Shown piece after piece: positions 19,884 to 55,369 of a stretch of DNA of 55,493 nt. The position numbers and the translations under genes are program-made. The DNA comes from Myxococcota bacterium (GTDB taxonomy: Bacteria; Myxococcota; Myxococcia; Myxococcales; Myxococcaceae): NCBI GenBank assembly GCA_049322255.1, contig JBMORE010000178.1, positions 1 to 55,493 of the forward strand, read 5' to 3'. Below the pieces are notes generated by a model that did not search any database, had not been told where the DNA came from, and worked only from the letters and a program-made list of their open reading frames with translations. Every line of letters begins with the position of its first letter. Within the stretch, counting starts at the first letter, position 1.

Positions 19884-19917
19884 CCCTCTCCCTCTGGGAG
19901 AGGGTTGGGGTGAGGGG
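19884..19917. repeat. REP-like short palindromic repeat
   Basis: CCCTCTCCC-TCT-GGGAGAGGG hairpin plus TTGGGGTGAGGGG tail; related copy at 32298-32330. Confidence 0.85.
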
Positions 19918-30434: not shown

Positions 30435-30463
30435 CTCTTACGCGCGGGCCCAGACGGAATCAA
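30435..30463 (-). promoter_or_regulatory. Putative sigma70 promoter of hbd (leaderless-type)
   Basis: TTGATT-N17-TAAGAG, 8 nt before the ATG, no Shine-Dalgarno. Confidence 0.5.
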
Positions 30464-30551
30464 TCTTGCCGATAAGGGTGCGAACGCGAGGGTTCCGGCG
30501 CTGCAGCCCCGTTGTCGAGCCCCACGCTTTCGATCGCTGCGACTCCGGTCG

Positions 30552-30696
30552 CCCCCTGGGCGTCTCTTTGCGGGTCTTCGACTTCCGGGAATTCGCTATT
30601 ACCCTCGGCGCGTGTAAGCCCGCGAAAGCTCGTGGTCGCAAAAGCGCGAACACACATAAAAGGCCCCGATCGGGTAATCACCATTTCCCGGAAATC
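30552..30696 (+). repeat. Dispersed 145-bp element, copy 1
   Basis: Gap-free alignment with the reverse complement of 50806-50950 (105/145 identical); internal inverted AYTTCCGGGAA-N7-TTACCC sites. Confidence 0.9.
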
Positions 30697-30913
30697 GGAA
30701 GGGCCACAACAACCCCTCGGAGGCGGGGGCGGAGTCGCAACGTTGAATACGTGGGGCTCGACGGCGAGGGCAGCTGCGCTGGAACCCTCGCGTTCACACC
30801 CTTACATGTCGGTCGGCGCAGAGACCTCGCATCAGTGACACTCCCGGGCCAAGGCGTGGACGGCGACGACCGTGGACTGGCCATTCTCAACCGTGGACGT
30901 GTATACCGATGGC

Positions 30914-31318
30914 ATGACAGCTTCCGCCCAATCGACAATCAGCCGAGGACCAGCGTCCCCAGCTTCTCCCTCCACATCTCTCACGGTGTTCGACATGGTC
31001 GGGCTCGCATTCGGAGCCTGTGGACTCCTGTGGTCTGCAACGGCCACCGTGATCTTGGCGCCTACTTTCGCAAAGATGTTCTCCGACTTCGGAGGGAAGC
31101 TACCTGCCTTCACCGAGCTGTGCTTGACGCAGTGGTTCCCCTTGACCTTGGGATTGGTGCCGCTGGCAGTGGTGGGGGCCGGCATCTTCGGTGCAGCGAC
31201 GAGGAAATTGAGGGCGATATTGATGAGCGTCGCTATTTTTCTAACCCTCGCGCTCCCCGTCGGTTTCCTCATCGCCATGTATCTGCCCATCTTCAGCATC
31301 GCCGGAGCGGTGAAATAG
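30914..31318 (+). CDS. Small membrane protein resembling a compressed PilC/GspF
   Basis: PTFAKMFSDFGGKLPAFT and C-terminal IAMYLPIFSIAGAVK motifs; TATACC 6 nt before ATG. Confidence 0.75.
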   Translation: MTASAQSTISRGPASPASPSTSLTVFDMVGLAFGACGLLWSATATVILAPTFAKMFSDFGGKLPAFTELCLTQWFPLTLGLVPLAVVGAGIFGAATRKLRAILMSVAIFLTLALPVGFLIAMYLPIFSIAGAVK

Positions 31319-31495
31319 AAAACCGCGATTCCACGCTCCGCCCGGCCAACCGGCACATCGGATGCGGTGGTAGACGCAATTGTGGCTCGACGGACTCATC
31401 GCTGGCTTTGGCGCCGAGGCGTCATTTCCGCGGTACTGTTGGCGATTCCTCTTCTGGCGGTGGAGACGCTCACGGGGTGTTGGAGATCGGTTTTG

Positions 31496-32215
31496 CTAGG
31501 GAACAACTCTGGTCAGGCCCTCTGCGCAGGCGGAATCGGCCGGATCAAGCTCGACGCAACGCTCGAAAGCGTCGCGTGCTTCCGCGAGGTTTCCGCGGCG
31601 CCTCTCGACGATCGCCAGGTATCGCCACGCTGATGGATTGGCGTACACGCGGGCGATCGCGGTGGTGAAGCAGCGGGCCGCCTCGTCGAGATTTCCCCGC
31701 GTTAGCTCGACCACCCCGAGGTCGTGCCACGGACTGGCGAGCGTGGGCGCAACCAACGTCAGTCGGCGGTACTGCTGCGCGGCCTCTTGCAACTCACCCG
31801 CGCGAAAATGTGTCAGCGCCAGATTGCTGCGCGCCTCGTGATAGTCGGGGTTCACCTTCAGCGCACGCTCGAAGTAGCTGATTGCCTGTCGGAACGTTCC
31901 CTCCTCTAGGCTGAGCACTCCGAGGTTGTTGTAAGCCTGGGCTTGCTCAGGATTGAGCCGGATGGCGCGAATGAAGTGCTCCTTGGCGCTCCGGCGATCT
32001 CCGCGGCGCATGGCAATCAGTCCTTGGTTCGTCCACGCGTCGGCGTGGTCGGGTGAAAACTCCAGGGCGTGCGCGCAGTGTGAGCTGGCGACATCGAGGG
32101 AATTTTTTTCGAGCGCGAGAGCGCACAGCTCAGTGTGGCGCAAGGCCTCAGGGTGCGGTGGACGGTGTGGAAGGCAGGCGGAAAGGACTGCAATCAATGC
32201 GAGATGGCGAGACAT
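31496..32215 (-). CDS. TPR lipoprotein (Tgl/PilF-like)
   Basis: VLSAC lipobox; tandem TPRs (AWTNQG, AYNNLG, ARSNLA, PWHDLG); GGAG RBS. Confidence 0.8.
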   Translation of the reverse strand: MSRHLALIAVLSACLPHRPPHPEALRHTELCALALEKNSLDVASSHCAHALEFSPDHADAWTNQGLIAMRRGDRRSAKEHFIRAIRLNPEQAQAYNNLGVLSLEEGTFRQAISYFERALKVNPDYHEARSNLALTHFRAGELQEAAQQYRRLTLVAPTLASPWHDLGVVELTRGNLDEAARCFTTAIARVYANPSAWRYLAIVERRRGNLAEARDAFERCVELDPADSACAEGLTRVVP

Positions 32216-32297
32216 CGTTTTCTCCTGTCGATCCCATGCGTGGGAGGCGATCGGAGGAGAATGACGACGGGCTTGGGTGCAGACGCACTGTGACGTT

Positions 32298-32330
32298 CCC
32301 TCACCCTTACCCTCTCCCACTGGGAGAGGG
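32298..32330. repeat. REP-like short palindromic repeat
   Basis: CCCTCACCCTTA-CCCTCTCCCACTGGGAGAGGG; reverse orientation of the 19884 copy. Confidence 0.85.
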
Positions 32331-32390
32331 GGGCCAGCGGCACGCTGACGGCTGCGAAGCTCACTCCCAGATTGTCGGCAGGAGGCCAAG

Positions 32391-40683: not shown

Positions 40684-40816
40684 CGGGAGCGGGAGCGGGA
40701 GCGTTTGCGGGCATCGGGGACGCGTACGGCTCACGATGGCGGGCCACGTGTCCGGGCGCGTGCGACGTACCCGATTGCCGGCTCCGTTCCCGCAAACGCT
40801 CCCGCTCCCGCTCCCG
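40684..40816. repeat. Perfect 28-bp inverted repeat containing (CGGGAG)n, 77-bp loop
   Basis: CGGGAGCGGGAGCGGGAGCGTTTGCGGG at 40684-40711 and its exact reverse complement at 40789-40816, between convergent genes. Confidence 0.92.
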
Positions 40817-47723: not shown

Positions 47724-48518
47724 TCAGCCCCCCTGGGGAGCTCCATGTCCGTGGCGACGGGCGGGCAGACGAAAGTTTCTCTCCGGCGGAGGCGGGCCAC
47801 CCTGGGCCACCGCCCGGAGCGACTCCACCTCGGCCTTGGTCAAGACCCGCAAAGTGCCCGGACGTAAACCCTCCACCCCGACGCCGGCGTAAGAGGGACG
47901 AAACAGGCGCACCACCGGGTGGCCGATGGCGGCGCACAGCCGTTTGATGAGGTGCGGCCGACCTTCGGCGACGCTCAGCTTGAGCCAGGTGTTCTTCTCC
48001 GCTTTTTCGAATACCTCCGCCGAGAGCGGCTTGGCCATGCCGTCTTCGAGGCGCACGCCGCCGCGCAGCTTCTCCAGCGTCTTTTCGGTGGGAGCGCCCT
48101 TCACCTTGGCGAGGTAGGTGCGGGGCACCTGGTAGCGCGGGTGCATGAGCCGGTGGGCGAGCTCGCCGTCGTCGGTGACCAAGAGGGCCCCTTCGGCGTC
48201 GTAGTCCAGCCTACCCACCGGGAACAGCCGCGCCTCGAAACCCTTCAGGTAGTCCTTGACCGTGGGCCTTCTTTGCGGGTCCTCCAGGGTGGTGACCACG
48301 CCGGGCGGCTTGTAGAGCACCGCGTAGGTGTGGGCCGAGGGCGGCTCGACCAGCTTGCCGTCGACGGTGACGAGGTCTTTGCCGGGCTCGACCTTGGTGC
48401 CGAGCGTGATGACCTTCTGGTTGTTCACACAGACGCGGCCCGCGACGATCAGCTGTTCGGCATGACGGCGCGATGCCACCCCCGCGCGCGCGAGGAACTT
48501 CTGCAGCCGCTCGGGCAT
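47724..48518 (-). CDS. rluB: 23S rRNA pseudouridine synthase (RluB-like)
   Basis: S4 domain ERLQKFLA..SRR; KPPG; VGRLD; EGR; follows scpB. Confidence 0.92.
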   Translation of the reverse strand: MPERLQKFLARAGVASRRHAEQLIVAGRVCVNNQKVITLGTKVEPGKDLVTVDGKLVEPPSAHTYAVLYKPPGVVTTLEDPQRRPTVKDYLKGFEARLFPVGRLDYDAEGALLVTDDGELAHRLMHPRYQVPRTYLAKVKGAPTEKTLEKLRGGVRLEDGMAKPLSAEVFEKAEKNTWLKLSVAEGRPHLIKRLCAAIGHPVVRLFRPSYAGVGVEGLRPGTLRVLTKAEVESLRAVAQGGPPPPERNFRLPARRHGHGAPQGG

Positions 48519-48522
48519 GCTT

Positions 48523-49431
48523 TTAGGCCTTGGGCGCGCCGGGGTTGGAGGTGTCGAGGAAAGTCGCCGCTGCTTTCGCCTTGGCGTCGGCCGAGGAGAT
48601 CGCCTGCTCCAGCTCGGCCAGGGCGGCCTCCGAGGCCTGGCTCTGTTGCTCCAGGCGTGACTGGAAGGCAGGGTCGGCGAGCGTCTCCACCGTGCCCCGC
48701 ACCGAAGGCGGCGGCGCTTCCTTCTCGAGAATTTCCTGGTGCTCCTCGGTGAGCTCCTGGAACTCGCGCAGCGTGGGCAGAGAGGACAGATCCTTGAGGG
48801 CGAAGAACTCGAGAAACTCTCGGGTGGTGCCGTAAAGAATGGGCCGGCCCACCTCTTCCTTCTTGCCGAGAATCTTCACCAACCGCCGTTCGAGGAGCGC
48901 CTTGAGAACCGCGCCGCAATCCACCCCGCGAATGTCCTCGATCTCCGGGCGGGTGACCGGCTGCCGGTAGGCGACGATGGCGAGTGTCTCCACCGCCGCG
49001 CGGGTGAGCCTTTGCGGCTTGACCCTCAAGAAGCGGCGCACGTACTCGGCCGAGCCGGGGTCGGTGCGCAGCTGCCAGCCGCCCCCTACCTCGGCGAGCA
49101 CCACCCCGCTCACCCCCTCACGCAAAAGCCCGGAGAGCTTTTCCAGCGCCTGGGAGATTTTCGCGCGCTCGATGCCGGTGGCCTCGTGGAGCTGCTCGAC
49201 GCTCAAGGGCTTGTCGGTGACGAACAACAGGCTCTCGACCACCGTGCGTACCCGCTCGGGGGAGAGGCGCTTGCTCTTGGCCAAGAGCTTCTCGAAGGAC
49301 GTCTCGGGCTCCTCCCCCGCCTCGTCGATGTTGGCCGCGTCCACCTCGTCGAGCTCGGGGTCGGCCGCAGGCACCGCGGTGACCTCGGCGACTTCTGCCT
49401 CGGAGAATGGCTTGGGCTCACTGGTACTCAT
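48523..49431 (-). CDS. scpB: SMC-Scp complex subunit ScpB
   Basis: ETLAIVAYRQPVTR.EIE.IRGV and GRPILYGTT..FL..F motifs. Confidence 0.97.
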   Translation of the reverse strand: MSTSEPKPFSEAEVAEVTAVPAADPELDEVDAANIDEAGEEPETSFEKLLAKSKRLSPERVRTVVESLLFVTDKPLSVEQLHEATGIERAKISQALEKLSGLLREGVSGVVLAEVGGGWQLRTDPGSAEYVRRFLRVKPQRLTRAAVETLAIVAYRQPVTRPEIEDIRGVDCGAVLKALLERRLVKILGKKEEVGRPILYGTTREFLEFFALKDLSSLPTLREFQELTEEHQEILEKEAPPPSVRGTVETLADPAFQSRLEQQSQASEAALAELEQAISSADAKAKAAATFLDTSNPGAPKA

Positions 49432-50221
49432 GCTCGTTCACCTCCGTCGTGCCCAGCCCCGCCAGGGCGTCGCCCTTGGCGGAGACGAGGATGTCGTTTT
49501 GCCCTTCTTCCTGAAACACCCGCACCAGCTTGAGCTTGCACATCTCCAGTAGGGCCAGGAAGGTGATGATGACCTGCTGTCGGGTTCGCTGATGCTCGAA
49601 GAGGGCGAAGAACGTGGTGCGTTCGCCGGAGCGTAGAAGGTCGGCGATGCGGTGAATGGCGTCGGAGAGGCTCAACCGCTCACGAACAATCTCGTGCTGC
49701 AAGGTGGGCGAGAGCGCCTTGAGCACGCGATCGAGGGCCTCGATGAGCTTGAAGACCGAGATCTCCGCCAGGCCGATCTCGTCGTCGGGAATGGGCACGC
49801 GCTCGGCGCGAACGGCGCGGGCGAAGACGTCTCTGCCGAAAATGTCTTGGCGAATGAGCTGCTCCGCCGCGTCCTTGTACTTTTGGTATTCGAGCAGCCG
49901 CCGCACCAGCTCGGCGCGCGGGTCGCCCTGCTGCTCGGCCTCGGCGTCTCCTTGCGCCTCTTGGGGAGGCAACAAAAGCCGGCTCTTGATGTGGGCCAGG
50001 GTCGAGGCCATCACCAGGAACTCGCCGGCGATGTCCAGGTTGATCTCGCGCATCAGCTCGAGGTGCGTAAGGTACTTCTCGGTGATGAGCGCGATGGGGA
50101 TGTCGAAGATGTCGACCTTGTGCTCGCGGATCAGGTGGAGCAACAGGTCGAGGGGGCCCTCGAAGCTCGGCAAGGCGACCCGGAAGGCGTGGGCAGGCGC
50201 GGCTTCGGAGGCTTGGGTCAC
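49418..50221 (-). CDS. scpA: Segregation and condensation protein A (kleisin)
   Basis: FEGPLDLLLHLI, IKSRLLLP, DPRAELV.RLLEY and TFLALLE motifs; start uncertain. Confidence 0.96.
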   Translation of the reverse strand: MTQASEAAPAHAFRVALPSFEGPLDLLLHLIREHKVDIFDIPIALITEKYLTHLELMREINLDIAGEFLVMASTLAHIKSRLLLPPQEAQGDAEAEQQGDPRAELVRRLLEYQKYKDAAEQLIRQDIFGRDVFARAVRAERVPIPDDEIGLAEISVFKLIEALDRVLKALSPTLQHEIVRERLSLSDAIHRIADLLRSGERTTFFALFEHQRTRQQVIITFLALLEMCKLKLVRVFQEEGQNDILVSAKGDALAGLGTTEVNEHEYQ

Positions 50222-50297
50222 GCGCCTTCGTACCAGCGCGGTGTCCGTCCGGTCAACGCTTCCTCCCGCAACCGCTCGTGGGCACGTTTGAACCGTG

Positions 50298-50702
50298 ATG
50301 GAGAAGGGATGGAAGGTGCTGGCGCGCGCGGACATGGTCGGCGCCCTGCTCGTGGCGGTAGCGACCATGCTGTGCGCCGGCCCGCTTCTGTGGGGGCCGC
50401 CAGACGGTGATCCTTACTCGTACGTGGTGATTGCTCCGCTGGTGGGAGCAGTGTTCTTCGTGGCGCTGGTGACGATGTTCGCCGAGCGCACCCGGCACGG
50501 AGCCGCGCGGCTCTTGATGGCGGCAGGCTCGCTCGTGTTGGCGGCAGTGGGTTTCGCCTACGCCGGCCAGGTTCACCCCGCCAAACTGGTGTTCTTCTAT
50601 TGGCTGCCGGCGATTCTTTCCATCAGCGCGGCGTTGGTGCTTACCCGCGCTCGCCGTGCAGCGGGAATCGAAGCTCCCCAGCGGACACGGCGCGTGGGTT
50701 GA
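50298..50702 (+). CDS. Small four-TM membrane protein
   Basis: Four hydrophobic segments; divergent from scpA. Confidence 0.65.
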   Translation: MEKGWKVLARADMVGALLVAVATMLCAGPLLWGPPDGDPYSYVVIAPLVGAVFFVALVTMFAERTRHGAARLLMAAGSLVLAAVGFAYAGQVHPAKLVFFYWLPAILSISAALVLTRARRAAGIEAPQRTRRVG

Positions 50703-50805
50703 CGGCCTGTAGAGGAAGAGCGCTCGAGGGCAGTGCCAATGACATGCAGCGCCACGTCCTCGAGCGCTTCGCCGTCACCCCCCCGGTGTCGTTTGTCAGC
50801 CTGTA

Positions 50806-50950
50806 GATTTCCGGGAATTTGCCGTTACCCGATCGCGGCTTTCCCGGTGCGATCCGACGCAACCCGCAACGACGTTCCGCGGACTTACCGAGCGCTTGGG
50901 TAATGACGAATTCCCGGAAGTCGCAGACCCGCAAAGAGACACCCAGGGGG
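50806..50950 (-). repeat. Dispersed 145-bp element, copy 2
   Basis: Reverse complement aligns without gaps to 30552-30696. Confidence 0.9.
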
Positions 50951-51016
50951 TGCCGCGGGCGTCTTCTGTCTCGCCACGGGTGGACTGCCTCCAAATTGGT
51001 GTTCTATTCGTCGCCC

Positions 51017-51760
51017 ATGACGATTCTCGCCATCGTCCTCGCTGTCGCCGTGGTGATGATCTCCTTCGAGTGGCTTTGGCCGGGGCGGGGGTTTCCCCAG
51101 GTGCGCGGGTGGTGGACACGCGCGGCGCTGCTCAACTTCGCCCAGGCGGCGTCGATCTTCCTGCTTGGCCGTTCATTCGATGCTTGGCTGATAGCGCACC
51201 GCCCGTGGAGGACTGACGCCCTCGGGGTCGTCGGCGGCGCGTTGCTCGGCTACGTCGTCCACTCCTTCGTGTACTACTGGTGGCACCGCTGGCGACATGA
51301 GGTGGGGTTCTTGTGGCGCTTCGTTCATCAGGTGCACCACAGCCCGCAGCGCATCGAAATCATCACCAGTTTCTACAAACACCCGGTGGAGATCGTTCTC
51401 AACGCGCTTCTTTCCAGCGGGGTGCTCTACCTGGGAGTCGGGCTCGGACCCCAGGCGGCCACTCTCGCCTTCGTGCTCTCCGGCATGGCCGAGCTGCTCT
51501 ACCACTGGAACGTGCGCACTCCGCGCTGGTTGGGTTACGTGATTCAGCGACCCGAGAGTCACTGCGTGCACCACCAAGAAGGGCTGCACGCCTTCAACTA
51601 CGGGGACTTGCCGGTGTTCGACATTGTCTTCGGCACCTTCCGAAACCCCGAGCACTTCGACGGCACTTGCGGCTTCGGCGCTCACAACGAGGGCCGCCTG
51701 GTCGAAATGCTCGCCGGTATCGACGTGTCGCGAACGCCGCGGAGCGAGCCCGCGACATGA
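51017..51760 (+). CDS. Sterol desaturase/fatty-acid hydroxylase family protein
   Basis: His boxes HRWRH, HQVHH and HCVHH; NYG...D..FGT. Confidence 0.93.
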   Translation: MTILAIVLAVAVVMISFEWLWPGRGFPQVRGWWTRAALLNFAQAASIFLLGRSFDAWLIAHRPWRTDALGVVGGALLGYVVHSFVYYWWHRWRHEVGFLWRFVHQVHHSPQRIEIITSFYKHPVEIVLNALLSSGVLYLGVGLGPQAATLAFVLSGMAELLYHWNVRTPRWLGYVIQRPESHCVHHQEGLHAFNYGDLPVFDIVFGTFRNPEHFDGTCGFGAHNEGRLVEMLAGIDVSRTPRSEPAT

Positions 51761-52230
51761 GCCCGCGCGCACCCCAGGTGGCGGCGGTCGTGCTGACGGC
51801 GGTGGGCTCGCTGCAGATGGCCGCCGACCTCATGGGATGGACGACGCTCAAGGGCCTGGCTGCGGCGACGATGATTGCCCCTGCACCAAAGGTGTTTTCC
51901 GCCCACCAGGGCTACGAGACTTACTCGACCGCGTTCTTCATCGACTACACCGATGCCAGCGGCGCCCAGCATTCGACGCAGGTTACCTCCGAGCGTTACG
52001 CGGGCGTGCGCGGGCCCTATAACCGGCGGAACGTGTACGGGGCGGCGTTGGCCTACGGCCCTGTGTTGCCCGAAGGGCTGCGCACTCCGGTGATGCGCTA
52101 TGCCCTGTGCGGGGGTCGGCCGCTCCTGGCCGAGTTGGGCATCGCTCCCGCCGACGTGCATCGTGAGCTGCGCGTGCGCTTCGTCACCCGCTTCGGCGAG
52201 ACGACCTCGATTTCCGCGGGGTGCCGATGA
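51757..52230 (+). CDS. Hypothetical protein, partner of the HTTM-like protein
   Basis: ATGA overlaps on both sides; N-terminal hydrophobic segment, PAPKVFS, GPYNRRNVYG. Confidence 0.8.
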   Translation: MSPRAPQVAAVVLTAVGSLQMAADLMGWTTLKGLAAATMIAPAPKVFSAHQGYETYSTAFFIDYTDASGAQHSTQVTSERYAGVRGPYNRRNVYGAALAYGPVLPEGLRTPVMRYALCGGRPLLAELGIAPADVHRELRVRFVTRFGETTSISAGCR

Positions 52231-53462
52231 ACAACGGGTGGACGGGTGGCCAGTACAGCGTCTACCGCGTCCTCTTCGGCGCTTACCTTGCCGTGCACTT
52301 CGCCCAGCTCATTCCCTGGGGCACCGAGGTCTTCTCCTCCGCAGGCGTACTACCCGCCGATGCGAGCCCTCTTTTGCGCGCGTTCCCCAACGTGCTCGCG
52401 CTGAACGACTCACCAGCGACGGTGACGGCGCTGCTGGGCCTCGGCGTCGGCCTCAGCGCCCTTCTTGCCTGTGGCTGGAAAGACCGCTGGGCCACGGTGG
52501 TGCTCTGGTACCTGTGGGCGTGTCTCTTCGGCCGAAACCCTCTCATCTCCAACCCGGGGCTGCCGTACGTCGGGCTTTTGCTCGTGGTGCACGCGTTTCT
52601 TCCGCGTGCGCCCTACGGCTCGTGGGAGCGTCACGGGCAGGCCGACCCAGGGGCTGACTGGCGCATGCCCAAGGAACTGTACCTCGCGGTGTGGACGCTG
52701 ATGGCCCTGGGCTACAGCTACAGCGGCTGGACCAAATTGATGAGCGCTTCATGGCTGGACGGCTCCGCGGCTCGCTTCGTCCTCGACGGCCCCCTGGCCA
52801 GGCCAGGGGCGCTGCGCGAGGCGATGCTTTCACTGCCCGACGGGGTGCTCCGGGTACTCAGCTACGCCGCGCTCGGGCTCGAGCTCCTCTTCGCGCCGCT
52901 GGCACTGCTCCGCAGGCTGCGCCCACTTCTGTGGATGAGCCTGTTGGTGATGCACGTCTTCCTCATCGCACTCATCGACTTCGCCGACCTGAGCCTGGGG
53001 ATGGTGATGCTGCACGTCTTCACCTTCGACCCGGCGTGGATTCGCCCCCGTGCGGCGAAGGGCGTCGAGATCGTCTTCTACGACGGCTACTGCGGCCTAT
53101 GTCATCGCACCGTGCGCCTGGTGCTCTCCGAGGACGCGGCGGGCGCCTTCCGCTTCGCCCCACTGCAAGGCGAAGCCTTCGCCCGCACCATCCCCGGGGA
53201 CCGGCGCGCCGGCCTGCCGGACAGTATCGTCGTGCTCACCGACGGCGGCGAGACGCTCGTCAGGAGCGAGGCGGTCTTGCACATCCTCGCGCGGCTCGGC
53301 GGACTGTGGCGGCTCCTGGCGGCCCTCGTTGGCCTCGTTCCGCGCACATTGCGCGACGACATCTACGATGGCATCGCCCGGGTGCGAAAGCACATCTTCG
53401 CCACCCCCGACGCCGCCTGCCCGATTCTGCCCGCTCCGCTGCGGGCGCGCTTCGACCCCTAA
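52227..53462 (+). CDS. HTTM-like multi-TM domain fused to DCC1-like (DUF393) thiol-disulfide oxidoreductase
   Basis: TM domain with RNP and Y.YSG..K....WLDG; C-terminal FYDGYCGLC, FAPLQ, RSEAV and Y..IAR.R motifs. Confidence 0.88.
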   Translation: MNNGWTGGQYSVYRVLFGAYLAVHFAQLIPWGTEVFSSAGVLPADASPLLRAFPNVLALNDSPATVTALLGLGVGLSALLACGWKDRWATVVLWYLWACLFGRNPLISNPGLPYVGLLLVVHAFLPRAPYGSWERHGQADPGADWRMPKELYLAVWTLMALGYSYSGWTKLMSASWLDGSAARFVLDGPLARPGALREAMLSLPDGVLRVLSYAALGLELLFAPLALLRRLRPLLWMSLLVMHVFLIALIDFADLSLGMVMLHVFTFDPAWIRPRAAKGVEIVFYDGYCGLCHRTVRLVLSEDAAGAFRFAPLQGEAFARTIPGDRRAGLPDSIVVLTDGGETLVRSEAVLHILARLGGLWRLLAALVGLVPRTLRDDIYDGIARVRKHIFATPDAACPILPAPLRARFDP

Positions 53463-54469
53463 GCCAACCCGACCGCCTTCCGCACCGAGTCGATGGTTGG
53501 CGCGCCCAACTCGCGGGCACGGCGTGCTCCTTCTCGAAGAATCCGCTCCAGCTCACCCGGGTCACGCAAAAGCTCCTCGCGCCGCGCCCGCGCCGGACCG
53601 AAGGTGGCGTGGAAGTACTCGAGCAGCTTCTTCTTGTACTCGCCGTACCCCAACCCTCCCTGGCGCCAGGACACGTCGACGGCGGCGAATTCACCCTCCG
53701 GCGCCATTGTCTTTAGGAGCTGGTAAAGCGCATTGTTCTCCACCGGCTTGGGCGCCTGCACCGGGGTGGAGTCGGTCTTGATGCTCATGATCCGCTTCTT
53801 CAGCTCTTTCTCGTCGCCGAAGAGGTCGATCGCGTTCCCGTAGCTCTTGGACATCTTCTGCCCGTCGATACCCGGGATGACGGCCGTGCTCTCCTGCACC
53901 CGAAAGCGCGGCAGCTTGAGGATGCCCACCGGGTGTCCCTCCTTCCCTTCCGGGTCGGCCGGGTCGTACCCCTTCACGTAGGTCATGTTGAACTTGGTCG
54001 CCCAGTCGCGGGCAAACTCCACGTGCTGAATCTGGTCCTTCCCCACCGGCACCAGGTCGGTTCCAAAGAGGAGGATGTCGGCTGCCATCAGCACCGGGTA
54101 AGCGAACAGCCCGAAGTCCGCCGGCTGCCCTTTGGCCGTCTTGTCCTTGTACCCGTGCGCGCGCTCCAGGTTCGCCACCGGCACCACGGTGCCCAAAATC
54201 CACATCAGCTCCGGAATCTCGGGGATGTCGCTCTGCCGAAACAGCGTCGCCTTCGTCGGGTCGAGCCCCAGGGCCAAGAAATCGACCGCCGCCTCACGGG
54301 TGAGCTCGCGGGCGAGCGCCGGGTCACGCACGGTGTTGAGCGCGTGGAGGTTGGCGACGAAGTACAGCCCCTCGCCCTCGTGCTGCAGCTCGATGAACTG
54401 CCGAATCGCTCCGTAGTAGTTGCCGATGTGGAGCCGCCCGGAGGACTGAATGCCCGACAAGATGCGCAT
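53459..54469 (-). CDS. trpS: Tryptophan--tRNA ligase
   Basis: SGIQSSG.LHIGNY, YPVLMAADIL, VPVGKDQ and KMSKS motifs. Confidence 0.97.
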   Translation of the reverse strand: MRILSGIQSSGRLHIGNYYGAIRQFIELQHEGEGLYFVANLHALNTVRDPALARELTREAAVDFLALGLDPTKATLFRQSDIPEIPELMWILGTVVPVANLERAHGYKDKTAKGQPADFGLFAYPVLMAADILLFGTDLVPVGKDQIQHVEFARDWATKFNMTYVKGYDPADPEGKEGHPVGILKLPRFRVQESTAVIPGIDGQKMSKSYGNAIDLFGDEKELKKRIMSIKTDSTPVQAPKPVENNALYQLLKTMAPEGEFAAVDVSWRQGGLGYGEYKKKLLEYFHATFGPARARREELLRDPGELERILREGARRARELGAPTIDSVRKAVGLA

Positions 54470-54481
54470 GAGCGAACCTTA

Positions 54482-55369
54482 TCAGCGCCGGGGGTGGTGC
54501 CGGTCGTACACCGAGCGCAGCCGCGCGCGATTGACGTGGGTGTAGATCTGCGTCGTGCCCAAGTCGGCGTGGCCGAGCATCGCCTGCACCGCCCGCAAGT
54601 CGGCCCCACCCTCCAAAAGATGCGTGGCGAAGGAGTGCCGCAGCTTGTGGGGTGAAGGAGGCCTGGGCAGCCCCGCAGCGAGCGCGTAACGGCGAAGGAG
54701 CTTCCAGAAGCCCATGCGGGTCATCGCCTTGCCCCGCTCGGTGATGAAGAGGGCGCGCGCCGCTTTGCCCTTGAGCAGCGCCGCACGAGGCCCAGCCAGG
54801 TAGGCCTCCACCTTCTGGGCGGCGATCGCTCCCACGGGCACCAGGCGCTCCTTCTTCCCCTTGCCGAAGGCGACGAGAAAGCCGGCCTGAAGGTGGACGT
54901 CGTTGACCGACAGCCCCAAAAGCTCGCTCACCCGCACCCCCGTCGCGTAGAGCAGCTCGAGCATCGCCCGGTCGCGAATCCCTCGCAGGGTGCGCTCGTC
55001 GGGAGCGGCAAGCAGCGCCTCGATTTCCTCGAGCGTGAGGTAGACGGGCAGCTTCTTGGCAAACCGCGGGGTGTCGATGTCCTCGGTGGGGTCACGGCGG
55101 GCCAACCCTTCCGCGAAAAGAAACCGGTGAAAGCCCCGCACTGCCGCCAGATGCCGCGCCTGGCTGCGAGACGACAAGCCTCGCCGGTGCAGAAAGGCCA
55201 AGTGCTCGATCACCGTCTCGCGGGTGACCTCGCCCATCTCGGTGATGGCCTGACGGGCGAGATCTTCGAAATAGTCGCGCACGTCGCAGGCATATGCATC
55301 GACCGTGCGGCCCGACAGCCCGCGCTCCACCCGCAAATAAGCGATGAACAGATCGAGGAGCGGCTCCAT
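54482..55369 (-). CDS. xerD: Site-specific tyrosine recombinase XerD
   Basis: RDRAMLELLYATG.RVSEL, GKG.KER.VP, SPHKLRHSFATHLL, LGHADL.TTQIYTHV, HHPR. Confidence 0.95.
   Translation of the reverse strand: MEPLLDLFIAYLRVERGLSGRTVDAYACDVRDYFEDLARQAITEMGEVTRETVIEHLAFLHRRGLSSRSQARHLAAVRGFHRFLFAEGLARRDPTEDIDTPRFAKKLPVYLTLEEIEALLAAPDERTLRGIRDRAMLELLYATGVRVSELLGLSVNDVHLQAGFLVAFGKGKKERLVPVGAIAAQKVEAYLAGPRAALLKGKAARALFITERGKAMTRMGFWKLLRRYALAAGLPRPPSPHKLRHSFATHLLEGGADLRAVQAMLGHADLGTTQIYTHVNRARLRSVYDRHHPRR

Follow-up and report, generated by a model that had tools for sequence, protein, structure and literature searches.

The DNA analysed here is a stretch of 55,493 nucleotides (hereafter the window) from a Myxococcota bacterium of the family Myxococcaceae (NCBI GenBank assembly GCA_049322255.1, contig JBMORE010000178.1, positions 1 to 55,493 of the forward strand). 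Its first gene (156-1535) contains eight repeats with a period of about 189 bp, presumably beta-propeller (FG-GAP-like) units, and a xerD-trpS-scpA-scpB-pseudouridine synthase-like gene order that is conserved in many relatives occupies positions 47724-55369, where it is interrupted by a palindromic element and by extra genes. Two families of short repeats are also represented in the window. One is a REP-type family (CCCTCTCCC..GGGAGAGGG; 19884-19916 and 32298-32330) with 190 motif matches genome-wide, which are often arranged as inverted doublets of 80-100 bp, in this genome devoid of any Y1_Tnp match, and the other consists of doublets of CGGGAG repeats (40684-40816), with 37 motif matches genome-wide and hairpins of 130-215 bp.

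Two further stretches of the window, 30552-30696 on the forward strand and 50806-50950 on the reverse strand, align without gaps at 105 of 145 positions, as an earlier note on this DNA had reported; 2000 dinucleotide shuffles gave a mean of 39 and a maximum of 62. The blocks of conservation, the four 7-bp spacers and the central motif described in that note are all present. The boundaries that it drew are, however, too narrow, since the 145-bp stretch forms the core of an imperfect palindrome of ~330 bp with 37-bp outer arms and a strong DNA fold, and both the outer arms and the fold-back of the entire element had been missed. Nor is the element present only twice: BLAST and profile searches of the host genome (4.85 Mb in 196 contigs, 99.6% complete) locate four copies. 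Copy A (window 30473-30806, + strand), delimited by a repeat scan and by DNA folding, is a full-length fold-back of ~330 bp, whereas copy B (window 50703-50953, - strand) consists of the core and a diverged right outer arm and lacks the left outer arm. The genome search added copy C (C157:60462-60787), which is full-length at 326 bp with both outer arms, and copy D (C69:16133-16310), which is without the left outer arm. The score of the right outer arm of copy B was reached by none of 1000 shuffles and that of its left outer arm by 426 of 1000, and neither outer arm of copy D is significant (148 and 684 of 1000 shuffles); the similarity of B and D is lost at the same left position. Across the four copies the cores are identical at 87-110 of ~145 positions (60-76%), the order of the blocks is the same in A, in C and in the right side of B, and the BLAST and profile searches of the host genome found no solo arms or solo sub-blocks. 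An open frame of 110 codons crosses copy A.

The element is built from two imperfect inverted arms of ~150 bp, which flank an asymmetric loop of 54, 54, 54 and 55 bp in the four copies. Each arm comprises, from the outside inward, a terminal block (beginning TAAGGGTG in copy A), a variable segment of 13-14 bp and a GC block complementary enough to pair with that terminal block. A short GC stem comes next, and a T-rich linker then connects it to the site. In copy A the left outer arm (30473-30551, +), which begins with TA and has no counterpart in B and D, is followed by the left inner GC box, a short REP-like stem, with its T-rich linker (30552-30580, +), by the left site (TTCCGGGAA, spacer, TTACCC; 30581-30604, +, with a 6-bp spacer at 30593-30598) and by a loop motif that is conserved in all four copies and loosely resembles an IHF site (30614-30627, +). 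The inverted right site (30668-30695, -) then leads into the right inner box and the right outer arm (30696-30806, -), which ends in TACA. The corresponding features of copy B are the left site (50898-50921, -), the loop motif (50875-50888, -) and the inverted right site (50807-50834, +). The centres of the two sites lie at a fixed spacing of 85, 85, 85 and 86 bp, and the fixed length claimed earlier needs correction for a 1-bp insertion in the loop of copy D.

In all four copies the right site differs from the left site by 1-2 additional bases next to TTACCC. The spacers, which had been described as free, are in fact partly conserved, and the eight sites follow roughly the pattern W-T/C-N-G-Y-N-R. 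The sites fit RGG(A/T)A(A/T)-N6-TTACC equally well, and because two of the eight read TAA-N6-TTA, a 6-bp spacer is as suitable as one of 7 bp. Compared between copies A, B and C, the core arms agree at 50-54 of 67 positions for left against left and at 41-52 for right against right, and this same-side likeness exceeds that between the left and right arms of a single copy (33-44). The two outer arms of copy A are more alike (66 of 81 positions) than are the arms of A and C (56-59), and those of copy C, at 55 of 81, are not. The central loop motif agrees with the E. coli IHF consensus at 6 of 9 positions in copy A and 5 of 9 in copy B; the description of the motif as loosely IHF-like is borne out, and its reading as an IHF site is weak. 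Matches to the loop motif are mildly enriched in non-coding DNA (16 of 35, compared with 18 of 74 for the reversed control), and none lies near sigma-54-like promoters (0 of 6 and 0 of 3).

The inverted outer arms of copy A identified by the repeat scan (30473-30509 and 30768-30804) enclose what is predicted to be one long DNA stem (30460-30820; -123 kcal/mol, z -11.5), and A and C, the two full-length copies, are each predicted to fold back strongly (z -16 and -10 to -7). Taken by themselves, the cores have only weak predicted folds (z -1.0 to -3.3 for A, C and D), apart from that of B, which folds well (z -7.0 and -4.9). In each of the four copies the predicted fold leaves the centre unpaired and has 1-2 extrahelical bases on the right arm. 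G-T wobbles number 24 on the top strand and 26 on the bottom strand, without strand preference. Changes on both sides affect 7 of 41 predicted core pairs, and 5 of 500 shuffles also reached the covariation score, a weak result given that the four sequences are related and that the structure was itself deduced from these sequences. At the ends of the element, copies share bases that lie outside the inverted arms, namely CCGA to the left of A and C and TACA-N-G-Y-CG to the right of A, B and C, and the exact ends are accordingly uncertain and may be asymmetric. The inverted arms of copy A carry TA at both ends and copy C has no TA on the left; since bases beyond the TA are common to independent copies, the TA may be internal. 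Apart from this possible TA, which is found on both sides of copy A only, no target duplication was seen at the copies.

The four copies lie in unrelated intergenic surroundings, their neighbouring genes share no function and their orientation to these genes varies. We interpret the copies as insertions because the matching places in relatives are empty, with no match to the arms in 38 orthologous loci. At copy C the distance from the stop codon of a LysM gene to the -35-like box of dprA is 358 bp, as opposed to 29-110 bp in five of five relatives. The 326-bp copy accounts for the longer gap, of which ~32 bp would be left without it, and there is no cargo at this site. In the region of copy B, 21 of 29 other loci have trpS no more than 1.5 kb upstream of scpA. 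Here, scpA and trpS are separated by ~2.7 kb of extra genes (50954-53458; fatty-acid hydroxylase family, DCC1-like), whose membership of the element is only conjectural, and copy B stands at one edge of them; the right end of B directly adjoins the stop codon of the gene at 50295-50702, and the small membrane gene beside B also occurs in two relatives. The small gene upstream of copy A is close to hbd in three of four relatives' loci, and here A edges ~1.9 kb of extra DNA with a small membrane protein gene, a TPR gene and a REP hairpin (30807-32390), which are unseen at this place in three of the four loci and which could only conjecturally be counted as part of the element. The extra DNA lies to the right of A and to the left of B. 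The earlier placing of the element beside accessory genes fails at copy C, whose neighbours on both sides are conserved genes and not accessory ones. The ends of A and C are 6-15 bp away from -35-like boxes, those of the promoters of hbd and dprA. Copy D follows an internally deleted ISKra4-family element (C69:15383-16117, ~735 bp), which is inserted 4 bp from D and retains both of its own ends and a 10-bp target duplication (one mismatch), all lying just outside copy D; as a candidate source of the enzyme this remnant was set aside for want of any link, and its ends differ from the element's arms.

The proposal that the element is a recombinase-driven module for gene capture is not supported. 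Besides the lack of cargo at copy C, no direct-repeat core is found at the element's ends, and the genes that neighbour A and B occur elsewhere without it. The neighbour of A, a small membrane protein (30872-31318), weakly resembles a portion of PilC/T2SS F. It is matched in 54 of 207 other family genomes, although PilC itself may account for some of the matches, and the hydroxylase neighbour of B has homologues in 45 of 207. Among the best 30 loci of each search, less the host's own genome, the element is present in none of 58 (29 + 29). The suggested check for a copy adjoining an integrase also proved negative: the host genome has four tyrosine-recombinase matches, comprising the window's own XerD, another Xer-like gene (C57), a broken gene (C116) and an integrase (C55), of which only the housekeeping xerD is close to a copy (3.5 kb from B), in a neighbourhood with scpA that is conserved in relatives. 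No copy lies beside the C57, C116 and C55 genes, and no arm beside the latter two. The C55 integrase, a divergent and apparently intact 360-aa protein encoded beside tRNA-Gln at the end of a series of small genes without known function (C55:11000-14760; probably a prophage or island), was rejected as the mover, having no copy or arm beside it and belonging to a tRNA-Gln-linked element. The broken C116 gene lies upstream of a broken IS91-family transposase gene, after which comes a hairpin of attC-like appearance on visual inspection (C116:4700-6500), and neither this recombinase nor the IS91-like remnants (C116, C163), which are unrelated to the element, show any link to the copies. Two partial reverse-transcriptase matches (C187:50580-50870 and C73:20471-20704) were likewise dismissed as the enzyme, with no copy on those contigs. 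The host dif site, the sole match to Xer-type patterns with both arms, is at C66:7216-7243. The eight sites of the element agree with it at 10-14 of 28 bases, and over its XerD arm at 3-6 of 11. Agreement with the dif spacer is 3-5 of 6 bases for the left spacers; the XerC arm is matched at 8 of 11 bases by the left site of D and has CCGATAA in common with the left end of A.

Homologues of the element were sought well beyond the host genome. BLAST with copy A was negative in all 40 relatives, and the two-site pattern matched none of 207 family genomes, nor did a half-site pattern with one mismatch allowed match any of 330 in the order. A sequence-only model gave weak matches in 13 of 150 family genomes (best E 0.0014), with no palindrome at any of the 15 loci inspected, and three weak matches, none palindromic, in one (G016) of five closer genomes. 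The outer arm, with up to three mismatches, was matched in 15 of 207 family genomes, with no core in the 14 of 15 loci that were profiled. Three of 400 genomes matched the pattern used across the phylum, two of them by chance and the third through a repeat in the genome G224. Searches of viral contigs yielded 31 chance stretches in the first instance and none in each of three further searches, an all-genome scan gave at least 116 stretches, with none homologous among the matches listed, both matches in metagenomes are unrelated, and plasmids and phages gave short chance matches only. Among sequencing runs, the stretch was listed for no RNA data set and occurs, as contigs, only in the run that is its possible source, where no junction is seen at the element, a result that says nothing for or against mobility. 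The negative tallies for the family and the order, like the Y1_Tnp and ISKra4 end comparisons (L306, L403), include the unpublished genome G148. A literature search, with subscription journals and supplements outside its scope, found nothing on this element, which is most likely a new, lineage-restricted family within the known class of small palindromic mobile repeats.

That the element is mobile, by whatever mechanism, is probable, and the earlier proposal of a non-coding DNA element with fixed geometry, which would need an enzyme in trans, is in accord with the empty sites, the 85/85/85/86-bp spacing and the absence both of an Rfam family and of a G-T strand bias. As to how it moves, we favour, tentatively and at somewhat less than even confidence, a REPIN/MITE-like non-autonomous element mobilised in trans by an HUH (RAYT-like) transposase, with the folded single strand as the mobile form. 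The long fold-back, the lack of a clear target duplication, the possibly asymmetric ends and a likeness to the G224 repeat together suggest that the substrate of such an HUH Y1 transposase is single-stranded DNA in its folded state, a mechanism put forward for REPINs (PMC3116915). In G224, which belongs to the same phylum, the repeat family flanks a Y1_Tnp/RAYT-like gene and also forms gene-less doublets. The repeat agrees with the eight sites at 12-17 of 19 bases (17 in the best match), but the likeness is confined to these 19 bases, of which the search pattern itself dictated 11-12; this similarity in sequence is taken as a lead and not as a link. The G224 gene (C118; L212:1487-2494) encodes a Bac_DnaA_C-like tail and lies between inverted repeats, and the gene-less doublets are found on contigs C94 and C105 of the same genome. 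No Y1_Tnp gene is found in the host assembly, a model of the arms applied around 30 family Y1_Tnp loci or around the G224 gene gave nothing convincing (best E 0.045), and a conserved GTAG/GGAG foot was not seen in the copies.

REPINs are described as having conserved inverted ends and a less conserved spacer with preferred spacings (PMC3116915), and in common with them the element is intergenic, non-coding and composed of two inverted conserved ends around a less conserved spacer of preferred length, with a long hairpin (PMC3116915). It differs in that its arms, at ~150 bp, are far longer than REPs, which are given as 20-40 bp (PMC3733652), and in having only four copies, no solo REPs, no RAYT in the assembly and a conserved loop motif. 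Furthermore, the core arms keep their left and right identity across the copies, and protein binding to double-stranded DNA would fit this equally well. An alternative origin for such a structure is the nesting of two or three unrelated REP-type doublets, with the block copied once or twice and the symmetry of the arms maintained by template switching rather than by selection. REP-type doublets are abundant in this genome (the 190 and 37 motif matches), and B and D lose similarity at a common left position. In the genome G009, moreover, a homologue of A's neighbour is flanked by a nested palindrome of ~300 bp (L362:1207-1504) that contains REP-type stems but is unrelated to the element. Yet no solo arm or sub-block occurs in the genome of the host, and the blocks follow one order in A, in C and on the right of B; we regard this origin as improbable. 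About as improbable, and the least supported in comparison with the HUH, DDE and recombinase readings, is a structured RNA, or a regulatory module such as an operator pair looped by IHF, that was duplicated inside the genome. The closeness of A and C to the hbd and dprA promoters, the base pairs changed on both sides and the loop-like motifs read by eye upstream of dprA in two relatives would suit such a module. Set against it are the varying orientation to functionally unconnected neighbours, the absence of the element from the relatives searched, the lack of any Rfam match at or near the gathering score and the absence of a strand preference in G-T pairs and in folding energy; the earlier note had disfavoured RNA, and the Rfam and G-T results agree with it.

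Two other classes of enzyme merit comparison, each of which we consider unlikely. A classical MITE moved by an IS630- or IS5-like DDE transposase with TA duplication, and possibly with an internal IHF site, would be comparable to the Correia, ERIC and YPAL elements. The element is indeed non-coding, with terminal inverted repeats, several copies and empty sites elsewhere, and its size falls within the 50-500 bp of MITEs, among which families with truncated copies are known (PMC10969869); the TA at both ends of the inverted arms of copy A and a possible internal IHF site recall the 155-bp Correia element, for which an internal IHF site and TA ends are reported (PMC2229807). Correia/NEMIS, ERIC/IRU, YPAL and RUP are also described as long, intergenic stem-loops with size variants, but of 100-200 bp and hence shorter than the element (PMC2229807). 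The element is moreover GC-rich, its TA is missing on the left of copy C and may be internal, no duplication is seen beyond that possible TA, and of the two IS families compared, the ISKra4 element beside copy D has ends unlike the arms and the IS91 remnants are unrelated. The other class is that of the tyrosine recombinases, for which the element would be an attachment structure, either with the inverted sites folded into a single site, as in CTXphi attP(+) or attC, or with two double-stranded sites joined by IHF. In CTXphi attP, two inverted dif-like sites 90 bp apart form a structure of ~150 nt (PMC4246890), and the element similarly presents two inverted recombinase-like sites, with centres a fixed 85-86 bp apart, that are able to pair on one strand. 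The TAA-N6-TTA sites, the left spacers, the XerC-like left site of D and the CCGATAA at the left end of A speak for such a structure. However, the sites are poor mimics of dif, above all in the XerD arm, the pairing runs ~110 bp past them, no copy is near dif (contig C66, with the copies on C178, C157 and C69), and phage genes are absent beside the copies. As two sites of one copy have different spacers, a simple inversion is also argued against. With regard to integrons, the predicted unpaired centre and extrahelical bases are defining features of attC (PMC2727003), and the element further resembles attC in its two paired boxes, extra bases on one arm and variable top, although it is without R' and R'' boxes and is longer than 57-142 nt (PMC2727003). 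There is also no cassette array, no G-T strand bias and no consistent position downstream of an open reading frame, and no copy or arm beside the C55 or C116 recombinase gene. Of the attC box motifs, RYYYAAC occurs in no copy and GTTRRRY as a single stray match in A. The more specific version, in which the folded strand of a gene-free mobile unit is itself the recombinase site and XerC/D or another recombinase inserts it at degenerate dif-like targets at a distance from dif itself, sometimes with neighbouring genes, appears less likely still.

For the preferred REPIN-like element and HUH-type enzyme, the history may be pictured as that of a decayed family of small non-autonomous elements of ~330 bp, encoding nothing and made up of a 54-bp loop of fixed length between long, imperfectly inverted arms. 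In this lineage such elements would have reached a minimum of four intergenic positions, close to stop codons and immediately upstream of promoters, with the copies diverging afterwards and two of them losing the left outer arm. One strand would fold back on itself, and its arms would be recognised by a RAYT-type HUH Y1 transposase supplied in trans, which would excise the element as single-stranded DNA and paste it elsewhere without a real target duplication, and the loop motif may be bound by a DNA-bending protein of the host.

As a lineage-specific palindromic repeat, the element adds one family to a known class and is of modest interest. The long arms, the fixed loop and the side-specific boxes are nevertheless unusual, and the identity of the enzyme could therefore bring to light a combination of mobile unit and recombinase that is new. 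Were the reading as a folded site true, single-strand recombination of the Xer or integron type would be extended to gene-free elements in these bacteria.
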